NCBI GenBank assembly: GCA_043758385.1
Contig: JAYVNP010000119.1
Span: 151 to 64,150, forward strand
Length of the DNA: 64,000 nucleotides
Reading direction: 5' to 3'
Origin: Saprospiraceae bacterium
Lineage (GTDB): Bacteria > Bacteroidota > Bacteroidia > Chitinophagales > Saprospiraceae
Positions 56,577-60,634 of the stretch are shown piece after piece (the first letter of the stretch is position 1; each line of letters starts with the position of its first letter). The position numbers and the translations under genes are program-made. Under the pieces are notes generated by a model that saw only the letters and a program-made list of their open reading frames with translations, was not told the origin of the DNA and searched no databases.

Positions 56577-57377
56577 ATGGCGCGTACGCAACAAGAAACC
56601 AGAAGTTATAAAGTTAATAAAACTCGCGTTGTTTGGGTTGTTGGTGCAATTTTGTTGCTCTTGCTTTTAATTTTTGCTACTCAGAAAAAGAATGATGGTA
56701 TAATTTCAGGTGTTGAGGTTGAAATAATTCCGTTAGCGAATGAAGAAAATGTTTTTATCACTGAAAGCGATATAAAAACTATCATAAAAAATAATTTCGA
56801 TGGCGACTTAATAAATACACAACTTTCGAGAGCCAATGTTTCGCGTATCGAATCGGTTTTGAAACAAGATCCATTTATTGATCATGTTGAAACGTATGTA
56901 GATGCTTCCAATGCAATCCATGTTAAAGTCTATCAGAGAAAACCTATTTGCCGAATTATTGACAATGAAAACCGACAATATTATTTATCGGAAAAAGGCG
57001 ATTATGTGCCACTTTCAAAACATTATACATCACGTGTAATTGTTGTAACGGGTGCAGTTTCAAATTTTTCAACCGATTATTTAACAAATCCGAATTACAA
57101 AGGGAATTTGCGGGATACATACAACCTTATAAAACTTTTAACAGCCGATAATTTTTTTCAACCCCTTGTTCAACAAATTTATATTGATGCCAATAGCGAA
57201 TTTACTTTAGTCCCAAATGTTGGTGAACAAAAAATACGCATCGGAGATTGTAATGACATAGACGATAAATTCAATAGGATAAAGATTTTTTACAAAGAAG
57301 CAATGCCTTACACCGGTTGGAATACTTACAGTTCGATTTCAGTAAAATTTAAAGGGCAAATTGTTTGTAAAAAATAG
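56577..57377 (+). CDS. ftsQ: Cell division protein FtsQ (POTRA-containing)
   Basis: N-terminal TM segment, then POTRA-like region; position after murG; size 266 aa. Confidence 0.6.
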   Translation: MARTQQETRSYKVNKTRVVWVVGAILLLLLLIFATQKKNDGIISGVEVEIIPLANEENVFITESDIKTIIKNNFDGDLINTQLSRANVSRIESVLKQDPFIDHVETYVDASNAIHVKVYQRKPICRIIDNENRQYYLSEKGDYVPLSKHYTSRVIVVTGAVSNFSTDYLTNPNYKGNLRDTYNLIKLLTADNFFQPLVQQIYIDANSEFTLVPNVGEQKIRIGDCNDIDDKFNRIKIFYKEAMPYTGWNTYSSISVKFKGQIVCKK

Positions 57378-57572
57378 TGACTTTCGTCATAATTTCAGTT
57401 TGAATGTTTGAACAAGAAAGTTAAATTGTTTTTTTCCATAAAATAGTAAAAAAATGTTTATGCAAGAAATGAAAAAATGTTAATTCTTTTTTTTTAAGCA
57501 CTGTATTTATAATTTTGTTATTACTTTTATGTGTCAAATTCAGATCGTTAAAACTTAAAACAACACGGAATT

Positions 57573-59795
57573 ATGGTCAACGAAGATTATTTACATTGTA
57601 GTGCTTATGAAGGTCATGCTCTACATCCAACGGAAGCTAATTTTACCGCTTTTTTACACGAGGAAAGCAAACTAAATTTTTTCGCGCTATTAGATGCCGA
57701 TGGCGCAGTTCTTTTAAAAAGTGAGGGCTATCCACAAGAAGCATCGCGCGAAAACGGCATCCAATCGGTTATAAAAAACCGCTCTAACCGCGATTTCTAT
57801 TCTGTTAAAGAATTAGAAGGTGAGTATTATTTAAGTTTACGCGCAGCCAATTATCGCGAAATTGCGCGTACTTGTCGCCACAAAACAGAAGCTGAAGCTT
57901 TGGCACTTCTTCCTTTTGTTACAGGTCAACAAATTCGTAAGAAGGTTGTCACTGAAACTGTTGCTGTTGCAACAACAACTGCTACGCACACAAATGACCG
58001 TCGTGAAGACGATTATTTAGCTTGTCATTTTTATGAAAATCAACCATCTGTCAATCATGAAGACGGAATGGTAAAATTCACACACACTAACGAAGAACAT
58101 TATTTTGCTTGGTACGACGAAAATAATCAGTTATTAATGCGCTCAGAAGGCTATCCGTCAACTGCTGCGCGCGATAATGGTTATGCATCAGTTTTAAAAA
58201 ATCGCGATTTAGAAGAGCGTTATGCTATTGAAGAGAAAATGGGTTATTACTTTGCATATTTAAAAGCAGGTAATCATCAAGAAATTGCACGTGGCTGCGG
58301 AAAGAAAACTTACGAAGAAGCTGCTGCTTTATATCCGAGTGCGCGCGCTGAAGCAAAACGCAAAGCGACTATTGTGGTGGCTACGCCAATTGTAGAAGCT
58401 CCTAAAGTTTCTGTTCCAATAATTGAAGTTCCGAAGGTCTCTGTACCAACACCAACGGTAGAAATTCCAAAAATTTCTGTACCTATTGTAGAAGCACCAA
58501 AATTAGAAGTTCCAGTTATTGCCGCTGCTGTCGTCGCTTCAATTCCTCACGTTGAATTACCAAAAGTGGAAATTCCGCACGTAGAAGTTCCGCATATCGA
58601 ATTACCTAAAGTTGAAGTTCCGCACATTGAAGTTCCTCATGTTGAAGTACCAGTTGTTGCGGCTACAATTGCTGCCGTTGCTGCTACTGTACCTCATATC
58701 GAATTACCTAAAGTGGAAGTTCCTCATGTTGAAGTACCAGTTGTTGCGGCTACAGTTGCTGCCGTTGCTGCTACTATACCTCATATCGAATTACCTAAAG
58801 TGGAAGTCCCTCACGTGGAATTACCAAAATTGGAAGCTCCTCATGTAGAAGTACCGCATTTGGAATTGCCTAAGGTAGAAGTACCTCATGTTTCAATTCC
58901 TGCGGTTGCACTTGCTGGCGCTGCGGTCGCTGCTGCGATTCCTCATGTAGAGATTCCGAAGGTGGAGATTCCGAAGGTGGAGATTCCAAAAGTGGAGATT
59001 CCAAAAGTAACTGTTGAAGTTCCGAAAGTAGAAGTACCAAAAATTGTTGTTGAAGCACCTAAAGTGGAAGTCAAAAAAGTTGTTGCTGCTGCTGCAGTTA
59101 CAGCTGCCGCTGTTGCTGTAACGCATATCCCGCACAAAAAAGAGGAAGTCAAAAAAGTTGTTACACCCGTAGCACCCATTGTTGAAACACCCATTGTTGA
59201 AGAGAAAAGTTGGCTTTCTAAATATTGGTGGTTGCCACTTCTTTTACTCTTAGGTCTTGGATTTTTATTGCTCAGAGGTTGCAATTCAGATACAACAACA
59301 GCAACTGTTACGCCACCTATTCCGGTAGAAACGCCTAAACCAGTTGTTTCGGAAGCACCAAAAGTTGCAGAGGTACCAAAAGTTGTTGCGCCTTCTTGCG
59401 ATTTACACTGGATCTATTTCGATTACAATAAATCTGACCTTCGTGCTGAGTCGAAAAAAGAACTCGACCACTTAGCAGATTTGTTGAAAGAAAATAAAGG
59501 TTCGGTTGCGGTGTTAAAAGGTTTCACGGATAGTAAAGGCGATGTTGCTTACAACGATGCACTTTCTAAACGTCGCGCCAATGCAGCGCGCGCTTATTTA
59601 ACGGGTTCAAAGAAAATTTCTGACGCACAAATTAAAGAAGATGCTTCCGGAAAAAGCGCACCCGTAGCGAAAAATACAGATGACGATTCAGGACGTAAGT
59701 ACAATCGTCGTGTAGAATTGTACATTCAAGATGCCACAGGAAAAAATATCTGTCAATCTATTGAGTTGACTATTCCGACAACTTTAAAGGAATAA
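57573..59795 (+). CDS. Multidomain protein: 2x YegP/DUF1508-like modules, long P-[HK]-[VI]-E-x pentapeptide repeat region, one TM helix, C-terminal OmpA-like peptidoglycan-binding domain
   Basis: LLKSEGYPQEASRENGIQSVIKN..YYLSLRAANYREIA and LLMRSEGYPSTAARDNGYASVLKN..YFAYLKAGNHQEIA; repeats such as PHVEVPHIELPKVEVPHIEVPHVE; TM segment YWWLPLLLLLGLGFLLL; OmpA motif GFTDSKGD..YN..LS..RA..NRRVEL. Confidence 0.8.
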   Translation: MVNEDYLHCSAYEGHALHPTEANFTAFLHEESKLNFFALLDADGAVLLKSEGYPQEASRENGIQSVIKNRSNRDFYSVKELEGEYYLSLRAANYREIARTCRHKTEAEALALLPFVTGQQIRKKVVTETVAVATTTATHTNDRREDDYLACHFYENQPSVNHEDGMVKFTHTNEEHYFAWYDENNQLLMRSEGYPSTAARDNGYASVLKNRDLEERYAIEEKMGYYFAYLKAGNHQEIARGCGKKTYEEAAALYPSARAEAKRKATIVVATPIVEAPKVSVPIIEVPKVSVPTPTVEIPKISVPIVEAPKLEVPVIAAAVVASIPHVELPKVEIPHVEVPHIELPKVEVPHIEVPHVEVPVVAATIAAVAATVPHIELPKVEVPHVEVPVVAATVAAVAATIPHIELPKVEVPHVELPKLEAPHVEVPHLELPKVEVPHVSIPAVALAGAAVAAAIPHVEIPKVEIPKVEIPKVEIPKVTVEVPKVEVPKIVVEAPKVEVKKVVAAAAVTAAAVAVTHIPHKKEEVKKVVTPVAPIVETPIVEEKSWLSKYWWLPLLLLLGLGFLLLRGCNSDTTTATVTPPIPVETPKPVVSEAPKVAEVPKVVAPSCDLHWIYFDYNKSDLRAESKKELDHLADLLKENKGSVAVLKGFTDSKGDVAYNDALSKRRANAARAYLTGSKKISDAQIKEDASGKSAPVAKNTDDDSGRKYNRRVELYIQDATGKNICQSIELTIPTTLKE
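58629..58802. repeat. 87-bp tandem duplication (2 copies, 3 mismatches) inside the repeat region of the OmpA-domain gene
   Basis: Copy 1 is 58629-58715 and copy 2 is 58716-58802; each encodes EVPHVEVPVVAAT[IV]AAVAAT[VI]PHIELPKV. Confidence 0.9.
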
Positions 59796-59823
59796 AATTT
59801 AATAGTTTAAATTAAAAACATAA

Positions 59824-59867
59824 AACACCTCGCGTTTACAAAATGTAAATGCGGGGTGTTTTTTTTG
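59824..59867 (+). terminator. Rho-independent terminator
   Basis: aacacctcgcgtttaca / tgtaaatgcggggtgtt imperfect stem followed by a T-run. Confidence 0.65.
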
Positions 59868-60050
59868 CGGGTATTAAAAAAAATGTAAGGGAAAAATAAT
59901 TAGCAGTATTTTTTTGAATTGCCGATTGTGCCAATTGAAAGCAAAGTGAGGTGCTTGTTAATGCGCAACAAAATTTTAAAAAATTCAATTGGAAGATTCA
60001 ATTTGTTTAATTGTCCAAAAAGACTTAACTTTACTAAGAAAATACATTGT

Positions 60051-60284
60051 ATGAATCCTTTGTTGAATAGAATTACTATCAATCCTGAAATTTGTCATGG
60101 CAAACCAACGGTGCGTAATATGCGCTACCCAGTGGAAATGATTTTGGATTTGATGTCATCGGGCATGACACAACAAGAAATTCTCGAAGATTACCCGGCT
60201 TTGCAAACTGAAGATTTATTGGCATGTCTTTCTTATGCGTCGAGGCTAACTAAGGTAAAATCAATAAATAAAGTTTTAGTATGA
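60051..60284 (+). CDS. DUF433-family antitoxin-like protein
   Basis: INPEICHGKPTVRNMRYPVEMILDLMSSGMTQQEILEDYPALQTEDLLACLSYA. ATG at 60051 preferred. Confidence 0.8.
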   Translation: MNPLLNRITINPEICHGKPTVRNMRYPVEMILDLMSSGMTQQEILEDYPALQTEDLLACLSYASRLTKVKSINKVLV

Positions 60285-60634
60285 AATTCTTGATAGACGC
60301 ACAGTTGCCTTATGGTTTGAAGAAATTCTTATCGTTAAAAGGCTATGATGTAATTCATACCGATAATCTACCCAATAAAGAACGGACTACAGACAACGAA
60401 ATAAAAGATTTATCACTTGCAGAGAATCGCATAGTCATTTCCAAAGATTCTGATTTTATCGATTCATTCTATGTACGAGGTGTTCCTCGAAAGCTACTCA
60501 TCATTTCAACTGGCAATATCAAAAATAGGGATTTATTCACCTTGTTTGAAAACAACATGCAGCATATTACCGAACTATTTTCTCACAATAATCTTTTAGA
60601 AATGGATAATTTTGAGATTATTGTACACGAATGA
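60281..60634 (+). CDS. DUF5615-family PIN-like toxin (Mut7-C-like)
   Basis: MKFLIDAQLP..G.DV.H......TD.EI...A..ENRIVISKDSDF; ATGA 4-nt overlap with the DUF433 gene. Confidence 0.8.
   Translation: MKFLIDAQLPYGLKKFLSLKGYDVIHTDNLPNKERTTDNEIKDLSLAENRIVISKDSDFIDSFYVRGVPRKLLIISTGNIKNRDLFTLFENNMQHITELFSHNNLLEMDNFEIIVHE

Follow-up and report, generated by a model that had tools for sequence, protein, structure and literature searches.

Within a stretch of 64,000 nucleotides from a Saprospiraceae bacterium (assembly GCA_043758385.1, contig JAYVNP010000119.1; this whole stretch is called the window below), a single open reading frame (ORF) of 740 codons runs on the plus strand from 57573 to 59795. It encodes a protein that carries, in this order, two modules of the YegP/DUF1508 type, a long spacer of PxVEx pentapeptides, one transmembrane helix and an OmpA-like domain. 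The source genome has a size of 3.79 Mb, a G+C content of 36.5% and a completeness of 97%. A preliminary description of the gene had likened the protein to MotB in topology, with a large repetitive arm in the cytoplasm, and had drawn attention to its position behind murG and a gene called ftsQ. The features of the gene, in window coordinates and in residues (aa) of the protein, are as follows.

57510–57517 (+): TAATTTTG, a putative promoter box, read from the sequence as a match to TAnnTTTG, which we take to be the Bacteroidota −7 promoter consensus
57573–59795 (+): coding sequence, 740 aa (P0001), from the ORF read-out
57573–57932 (+): YegP module 1 (aa 1–120), an EDYLHC9SAYE extension and a double DUF1508 repeat ending in EIARTC101; from Pfam, alignment to PDB 2K8E, AlphaFold2 (predicted local distance difference test, pLDDT, 95–97) and cysteine coupling
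57933–58004 (+): basic linker between the modules (aa 121–144), isoelectric point (pI) 10.9, predicted to be disordered (AlphaFold2 pLDDT below 50 for aa 125–144)
58005–58358 (+): YegP module 2 (aa 145–262), DDYLAC151HFYE and a double DUF1508 repeat ending in EIARGC242; from Pfam, alignment to PDB 2K49, AlphaFold2 (pLDDT 91–98) and cysteine coupling
58359–59207 (+): low-complexity spacer (aa 263–545) with 33 PxVEx pentapeptides and five to six Pro-flanked Ala/Val blocks; from repeat finding, composition and AlphaFold2
58629–58826 (+): 87-bp unit in 2.3 copies at 94% identity; from Tandem Repeats Finder
59223–59273 (+): single transmembrane helix YWWLPLLLLLGLGFLLL (aa 551–567); from the Hessa scale, an AlphaFold2 helix at aa 553–568 and family conservation
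59274–59282 (+): R568-G569-C570, the family-wide [KR]-G-C directly behind the helix; from 178 parsed family proteins
59283–59396 (+): putative periplasmic linker (aa 571–608), rich in Thr, Pro, Val, Glu and Lys; from composition and low AlphaFold2 confidence at aa 571–595
59397–59792 (+): OmpA-like domain, probably peptidoglycan-binding (aa 609–740), with FTD653sKG, N661daLSkRR668A and NRRVE; from Pfam, Foldseek, phmmer and invariant columns
59822–59870 (+): intrinsic terminator with a perfect stem of 19 bp and, behind it, a U-run; from RNA folding

The first 260 or so residues had been described as two modules, each a DDYL.C..YE element followed by a YegP/DUF1508-like domain, and this is borne out by Pfam, by matches in the PDB and by structure prediction. 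The DUF1508 profile (PF07411) scores 81.3 bits against a cut-off of 22, over two stretches; EDYLHCSAYE (aa 4–13) and DDYLACHFYE (aa 146–155) each stand ahead of one complete YegP-like double repeat, and in phmmer the modules align over both halves of 2K8E and 2K49 (E-values of 4e-8 and 2e-5). An AlphaFold2 model built with 64 relatives gives both modules a pLDDT of 91–98 and a repeated strand-strand-strand-helix pattern, and Foldseek superposes a module on E. coli YegP (2K8E) with a TM-score of 0.72 and a root-mean-square deviation (rmsd) of 1.7. Both modules are acidic (pI 5.1–5.3). The protein shares with UPF0339/YegP the profile and the pseudo-dimer fold, but not the small, soluble, stand-alone form, being 740 aa long and furnished with a transmembrane helix and an OmpA-like domain.

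The claim that a single transmembrane helix and a genuine OmpA-like domain come last also held, on the Hessa scale, in the AlphaFold2 model, in Pfam and in Foldseek. On the Hessa scale no 19-residue stretch of the protein sums lower than the one from aa 552 (+1.7), which falls on the helix listed above; the family consensus of this helix is GGF(K/N)WWWLLLPLLLLL. Pfam OmpA (PF00691) covers aa 615–708 at 67.5 bits (cut-off 27.2), the domain is modelled at a pLDDT above 90, and its Foldseek matches to OprF (5U1H), Pal (4G4W) and Acinetobacter baumannii OmpA (3TD3) have TM-scores of 0.81–0.92 and rmsd values of 1.1–1.3. Residues D653, G656, N661, L664, S665 and R668, together with the signature TD..G / N..LS.RRA / NRRVE, are invariant in 64 aligned relatives, and in phmmer alignments the signature matches OprF and Pal residue for residue. 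The conserved Asp and Arg presumably form the diaminopimelate (DAP)-binding pocket of the A. baumannii OmpA complexes (3TD3–3TD5), and the OmpA-like domain would accordingly be expected to bind peptidoglycan. It also holds a conserved pair of cysteines, Cys609 and Cys727.

About 190 residues lie behind the transmembrane helix throughout the family, and the periplasmic partner domain appears to be exchangeable within it. A Cys/His-rich domain of about 150 aa, with the motifs LGTNPEFGNSH and FMKTCGNHFFFC and with invariant Cys and His, takes the place of the OmpA-like end in at least 54 of 248 family proteins (for example at L005:10368-10955, the C-terminus of P0098, and in P0060, P0076, P0091, P0114 and P0116). 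The core of this domain is modelled by AlphaFold2 at a pLDDT above 90, and Foldseek found no match for it in PDB or BFVD (best E-values 0.25–0.31); going by the model, it seems to be an orphan fold.

A further family mark lies directly behind the helix. All 178 parsed family proteins have their first cysteine 2–5 residues past the hydrophobic core, and in 148 it is the third residue. A lipobox closes an N-terminal signal peptide with L-[AS]-[GA]-C, position −2 being uncharged. We rejected [KR]-G-C as a lipobox, since Arg or Lys stands at −2 and the hydrophobic segment begins at residue 551 and is not N-terminal. The cysteine may serve in an intermolecular disulfide or mark a position at the membrane interface.

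The preliminary description was also right that the protein has no signal peptide. No hydrophobic N-terminal segment or signal peptide was found in the translated protein, the frame upstream of the start is open for just 7 further codons, so that a hidden signal peptide is impossible, and every family member begins M-x(2-3)-EDYLxC. Because a signal peptide is absent and the 260-residue N-terminus is confidently folded, the N-terminal 550 residues would lie in the cytoplasm, and since an OmpA-like domain only makes sense beside peptidoglycan, the C-terminus would lie in the periplasm. The topology that had been predicted, with the N-terminus in and the OmpA-like domain outside, is thus supported as what appears to be the only workable arrangement. 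We also considered the transmembrane helix, linker and OmpA-like domain as a portable cassette that might sit behind other N-terminal domains. Nearly all of its closest matches, down to an E-value of about 1e-27, carry DUF1508, so that the idea was dropped and the cassette affords no independent check of the topology.

The spacer between the modules and the membrane is 283 residues long; it has a net charge of −9 and contains 35 Glu and 15 His. Its 33 units of the form P-x-[VIL]-[EST]-x lie between aa 272 and 500, and their variable residue x is most often Lys (16 units) or His (13), with Ile in 3 and Thr in 1. The His- and Lys-containing repeats reported earlier are present; the order of x is mixed and does not alternate strictly (IKIKTKIK HKHHKHH HKH HKHKHHKH HKKKKKK). 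Tandem Repeats Finder returns periods of 15, 30, 45 and 87 bp. Each copy of the 87-bp unit comprises one Ala/Val block with its flanking PHxE and PKVE units, and judging by the sequence this unit marks a recent expansion of the repeat. The PxVEx-type repeat does not recur in the rest of the 3.79-Mb genome. Six Ala/Val-rich blocks had been counted; five are clear (aa 313–323, 360–373, 389–402, 443–456 and 502–517) and the sixth (aa 264–271) is weak. They were considered as transmembrane segments and rejected on three grounds: over 19 residues they sum to +6 to +8 on the Hessa scale, where the transmembrane helix has +1.7; AlphaFold2 predicts no helix there; and orthologues of 71–79% identity have anywhere from 3 to 6 of them, which would flip the side on which the OmpA-like domain lies. 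In the AlphaFold2 model aa 281–546 have a pLDDT below 50 and no secondary structure.

Several searches place the protein in what is, by its sequence, a family of several hundred members, mainly of the Saprospiraceae, uncharacterised, and by no means a singleton. A word-seeded search gave 349 clusters at 90% identity; among the 120 matches listed DUF1508 is nearly always present, and OmpA accompanies it in most. The plan of YegP array, spacer, transmembrane helix and periplasmic domain is shared by about 200 clusters at 50% identity, most of them from Saprospiraceae genomes assembled from metagenomes and a few from Cytophagales. An exhaustive HMMER search with aa 1–265 against 1.84 billion representatives returned 682, 380 and 200 matches at E-values of at most 1e-3, 1e-10 and 1e-30, respectively. 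Among species-representative genomes, the N-terminal region occurs in 42 of the 150 genera of the source organism's own family, and in none of 295 sampled genomes from other families of the phylum. A pattern scan over all GTDB species genomes found it mostly in metagenome-assembled genomes of Saprospiraceae and Chitinophagales, and in addition in Arcicella, Pseudarcicella and Spirosomataceae. One bearer is a cultured isolate of the Cytophagales, Arcicella sp. LKC2W, whose homologue of 648 aa (L074:3968-5914, NZ_JAYGIN010000001.1) has two modules, a W-rich transmembrane helix followed by RGC, a divergent OmpA-like end and, in place of PxVEx, a duplicated Gly/Ala zipper (DGIGAGVIGAGLAGAAAL).

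Family proteins have mostly 2–6 modules (1–9 in a looser count), and the protein studied here is 33–88% identical to 63 aligned members. It carries each of the family marks: DDYLxC..YE...EIARxC modules, a GGFxWWWLLPLLLL transmembrane helix with [KR]-G-C, and a C-terminal domain that runs to about 190 aa. The preliminary description knew of no characterised protein with this combination. The architecture has now turned out not to be unique, and none of the relatives found is characterised: database names go no further than "DUF1508 domain-containing protein", "OmpA family protein" and COG-style YegP or OmpA labels, and among the papers listed as mentioning DUF1508, YegP or UPF0339 no title or abstract points to this architecture.

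The spacer is the part of the protein that changes most within the family. A spacer with 15–18% Pro and 5–8% His is confined to the eleven closest relatives (P0002–P0011, and P0012, in which most of the array is lost), which range from 578 to 822 aa in total length. When the number of repeats was compared among them, as had been suggested, it varied from 7 to 29 [HK] units and was seen to drift even at 71–79% identity; units with His are kept in every close relative, 3–13 per protein. Other clades have Ala-rich or Gly-zipper spacers in place of PxVEx. The distance from the last module to the transmembrane helix has a median of 75 aa and a range of 21–363, and just one of 178 proteins exceeds the window's protein in this respect. 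The stretch ahead of the membrane that follows the last module includes at least one Pro-flanked block of small hydrophobic residues in 166 of these 178 proteins. On this comparison the best reading of the PxVEx/His array is that of a clade-specific and fast-evolving version of the spacer.

Taken together, we lean towards a reading, somewhat better than evenly balanced in our judgement, in which the protein is an inner-membrane tether, fixed to the cell wall and oriented N-in/C-out, for cytoplasmic YegP modules. The analysis itself shows what the domains are, the predicted disorder, how the family is distributed, the coupling of cysteines described below and the lack of a conserved partner gene; we infer the topology, the binding of peptidoglycan, the tethering role and a redox or ligand function of the cysteine pair. 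The protein would span the inner membrane once, from an N-terminus in the cytoplasm to a C-terminus in the periplasm. There the OmpA-like domain, on a flexible linker of about 40 residues, would bind the stem peptide of peptidoglycan non-covalently, which would fix the protein in the plane of the membrane. On the other side the disordered spacer of 283 residues would hold the two YegP double-repeat modules under the membrane; in most relatives the modules would sit near the membrane, and in the window's protein on a long disordered chain. The modules may be presented there as binding or sensing units. The core of the family would then be the YegP array, the W-rich transmembrane helix with [KR]-G-C, and the periplasmic domain, and the PxVEx His/Lys array with its Ala/Val "sticker" blocks would be a lineage-specific, expandable element that sets reach and flexibility and not the core function.

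Several observations weigh against this reading. The 15 residues before the helix contain on average 1.0 Lys plus Arg and the 15 after it 2.0; the C-terminal flank is the more basic in 120 of the 178 family proteins and the N-terminal flank in 14, which opposes the positive-inside rule. A strictly coupled pair of cysteines in each module is more usual in extracytoplasmic disulfides than in cytoplasmic domains. Finally, the sole published structural guess on tandem DUF1508 is that it is a PC4/Whirly-like nucleic-acid binder (PMC12065111); the acidity of the modules gives this no support, and the proposal thus yields no ligand here.

The cysteine pair deserves attention in its own right. Over 782 modules parsed from 248 family proteins, the cysteines of DDYLxC and EIARxC are both present in 727 and both absent in 49; the second alone is found in 6, several of which are mis-registrations of the regular expression, and the first alone in none. 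The modules are phylogenetically related, so that the Fisher p-value makes the coupling look stronger than it is. Joint loss has, however, occurred in separate groups (P0024, P0037, the P0072 group, P0115, P0122, P0123, P0149, P0151 and P0159). Since joint loss is repeated and the first cysteine never occurs on its own, the two are likely to work together, most simply as a reversible disulfide or as a shared ligand site. No third or fourth conserved metal ligand was found in the alignment of 64 relatives, and a C2H2 zinc site in the modules was rejected because the candidate His is not conserved between them. The modules could be imagined as cytoplasmic redox sensors, in which oxidation closes Cys9–Cys101 and Cys151–Cys242 disulfides and alters what the modules bind. 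Such a thiol switch would couple oxidative or envelope stress to a site anchored at the wall, and it would refine the tether proposed above, with which it is compatible. The strictness of the co-occurrence and the missing metal ligands speak for it, as does a description of E. coli YegP as stress-induced (bioRxiv 10.1101/2024.11.21.623966). On the other hand, neither a redox partner gene nor any conserved neighbour was found at 86 loci, and lineages that lack both cysteines retain the rest of the module, so that the pair is dispensable for the fold. We regard the thiol switch as a possibility of a minor order.

We are more doubtful of the idea, which takes further a suggestion of the preliminary description, that the His/Lys array is a pH- or metal-responsive arm whose compaction or extension is the point of the protein. 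With 15 His and 35 Glu in 283 residues the spacer has a P/E/V/K composition like that of titin PEVK and of the EP/KP rod of TonB, and units with His are retained in all close relatives. The bacterial cytoplasm is usually near neutral in pH, however, and His would be largely uncharged there. The repeat is moreover restricted to the nearest clade, the other spacers being chemically different and mostly short, its unit number drifts between close orthologues, and AlphaFold2 gives it no structure. Since the array is found only in the closest relatives and is variable and predicted to be disordered, a response of the spacer to pH or metals is possible at most as a local add-on and, on the comparison of sequences, could not be the core function of the family.

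An inverted topology, in which the YegP array and the spacer are extracytoplasmic and stabilised by structural disulfides while the C-terminal domain lies inside, would account for the coupled cysteine pairs and for the basic C-terminal flank of the helix, and the CxC and C-x2-H...C-x2-H...C of the alternative C-terminal domain could then be a cytoplasmic zinc site. We nevertheless consider it improbable. Signal peptides are absent in all family members, no export route is known for 550 to more than 1000 folded N-terminal residues without one, and an OmpA-like domain with its signature intact would have no ligand in the cytoplasm.

The gene neighbourhood had been remarked on earlier, the gene lying directly behind murG and ftsQ, where ftsA and ftsZ would be expected. 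Upstream stand a gene for a SET-domain protein, murG, whose identity we confirm, and a bitopic ORF of 266 aa at 56577–57377. This last ORF has no match in Pfam, NCBIfam or PDB, and the name ftsQ thus rests on position and topology. No match to FtsQ_DivIB_C or POTRA_1 was found in the whole genome (97% complete), so that the ORF may be a very divergent FtsQ, or else FtsQ is absent from the genome. The ftsA and ftsZ genes are intact on another contig (C38), behind an unrelated gene of 656 aa, which by eye is a candidate for a glycosidase of the alpha-amylase family. Of about 86 loci examined, only 4, with proteins 74–79% identical, keep the order SET, murG, ORF and YegP-OmpA gene; murG and the FtsQ-like ORF are missing upstream at the roughly 80 others, including a genome of the same genus with a protein of 61% identity. 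The next clade has queA, a DUF2795 gene and then the family gene, and further clades differ again. In this sister clade the DUF2795 gene, of 73 aa, lies directly upstream and is itself preceded by queA (L004 7405–7626, L010 5404–5625 and 8 more); the pairing is clade-specific, at 10 of 86 loci. When all flanking ORFs of the 86 loci were clustered, no neighbour family occurred at more than 11, and no conserved operon partner emerged. Two larger clusters were made up of antisense shadow ORFs inside the gene itself.

The gene most likely stands alone as its own transcription unit, as far as its flanking signals allow us to judge. The TAATTTTG box lies 56 bp before the ATG, inside a gap of 195 bp behind the upstream gene, and the terminator hairpin has a folding energy of −28 kcal/mol (z = −6.6 against shuffles); the gene's own TAnnTTTG box and its strong terminator make a separate unit probable. 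A role as an accessory protein of division or cell-wall synthesis, linked to murG and ftsQ in the usual place of ftsA and ftsZ, can draw on the adjoining murG and bitopic FtsQ-like ORF, on the four close relatives that share the arrangement, and on a likeness to DamX and FtsN, which also combine a cytoplasmic domain and a transmembrane helix with a binder of peptidoglycan in the periplasm. The synteny is missing everywhere else, however, the gene has its own signals, ftsA and ftsZ are accounted for, and the distribution, with 42 of the 150 genera in its own family, has too many gaps for a core factor of division. We hold such a role to be very unlikely, and a protein of the division and cell wall (dcw) cluster was rejected because linkage to division or wall genes is not conserved across the family.

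Least of all, and in our view scarcely to be entertained, the protein might be a MotB-type stator or a Tol/Ton-like energy transducer: it shares with MotB the N-in/C-out arrangement and the OmpA-like anchor, and NCBIfam models of MotB, MotS and MotD match its OmpA part weakly, but the helix YWWLPLLLLLGLGFLLL has no Asp or Glu, no MotA, ExbB or TolQ gene is a neighbour, and the cytoplasmic part has 550 residues and not about 30. Membership of the MotB family itself was rejected, with scores of 22–35 bits against cut-offs of 259–301, so that of the label "MotB-like" the topology survives and the rest does not. The long form of TssL/DotU was likewise rejected (TIGR03350, 44.6 against 139.8, on the OmpA part only, with no type VI secretion system (T6SS) genes nearby), as were other named models of the OmpA family, whose scores lie far below their cut-offs.

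Two side observations complete the locus. Directly downstream, at 59919–60634 of the window, lies a pair of DUF433 and DUF5615 (PIN-like) genes with overlapping stop and start, an arrangement typical of type II toxin-antitoxin systems. The pair was missing from all related loci in tblastn searches and is thus a local insertion. On the minus strand, ORFs of 80 and 113 aa at 58893–59284 run antisense to the repeat region; antisense ORFs within the gene also group together across related loci, and they are shadow frames of the repeats and not genes.

The DUF1508/YegP domain is widespread, and the papers searched assign it no function, nor do we know of one that has been assigned elsewhere. The wall-fixed tether favoured here would give it a predicted cellular address, just under the inner membrane and tied to the wall, and with a co-inherited cysteine pair, an exchangeable periplasmic domain and a cultured bearer in Arcicella sp. 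LKC2W the function of YegP becomes experimentally approachable. Annotators should not make too much of the His/Lys repeat or of the place behind murG-ftsQ, each being a local trait of a single species cluster. A bolder proposal, which we put forward as a long shot, is that YegP modules acting as thiol switches hang from the wall on a disordered chain of stickers and spacers, making up a previously unrecognised device that couples the envelope to the cytoplasm. If this were so, self-association of the Pro-flanked Ala/Val or Gly-zipper blocks would build an elastic or condensate-like layer, anchored to the wall, beneath the inner membrane. The state of this layer would depend on redox conditions and, in this clade, also on pH or metals by way of the His-rich PxVEx units. 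The proposal would moreover provide a first functional handle on the domain.

The protein would thus belong with the peptidoglycan-anchored inner-membrane proteins; the observation from which we set out is confirmed and its interpretation is supported in part. Its modules have the same tandem DUF1508 pseudo-dimer as E. coli YegP and Shewanella SO_3888 (UPF0339; 2K8E and 2K49). YegP is soluble, stands alone and has about 110 aa, whereas here the modules share one chain with a spacer, a transmembrane helix and a periplasmic domain, carry the additional N-terminal DDYLxC..YE extension and the coupled cysteines, and show a shortened helix in the second half-repeat. The periplasmic end matches Pal, OprF, A. 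baumannii OmpA, PorE and TagL in fold and in DAP-binding signature, at 31–38% identity; those proteins are barrels of the outer membrane, lipoproteins or components of secretion machines, unlike the present one with its inner-membrane helix and large cytoplasmic part.

With MotB and PomB the protein has in common the bitopic N-in/C-out topology and the OmpA-like wall anchor, but not the transmembrane Asp, the MotA partner or the short N-terminal tail. The Glu-Pro/Lys-Pro spacer of TonB and the PEVK region of titin resemble the present spacer, in which a low-complexity repeat of Pro, Glu, Val and Lys joins an anchor to a globular domain. The likeness is an analogy of composition, by which the PxVEx spacer plausibly forms an extended or entropic-spring element; the present repeat would lie on the cytoplasmic side, includes His and Ala/Val blocks, is not homologous and is unconserved within its own family. 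The long form of TssL offers a precedent for the layout, with a large cytoplasmic N-terminal domain, a single transmembrane helix near the C-terminus and a periplasmic OmpA-like extension, and the OmpA-like domain of TssL/TagL is reported to fix a cytoplasmic assembly to the wall (PMC3426401, PMC8253398). Here the DotU/TssL fold is absent, and the cytoplasmic part consists of the YegP array and the disordered spacer. HubP, FimV and TspA combine a periplasmic peptidoglycan binder and one transmembrane helix with a cytoplasmic region that is long, acidic and rich in repeats and serves to position client proteins. They have no sequence relationship to the present protein and the opposite orientation, with an N-terminal LysM domain behind a signal sequence; the likeness is one of concept, in that the YegP-OmpA protein would be a mirror-image, wall-fixed anchor for cytoplasmic cargo.

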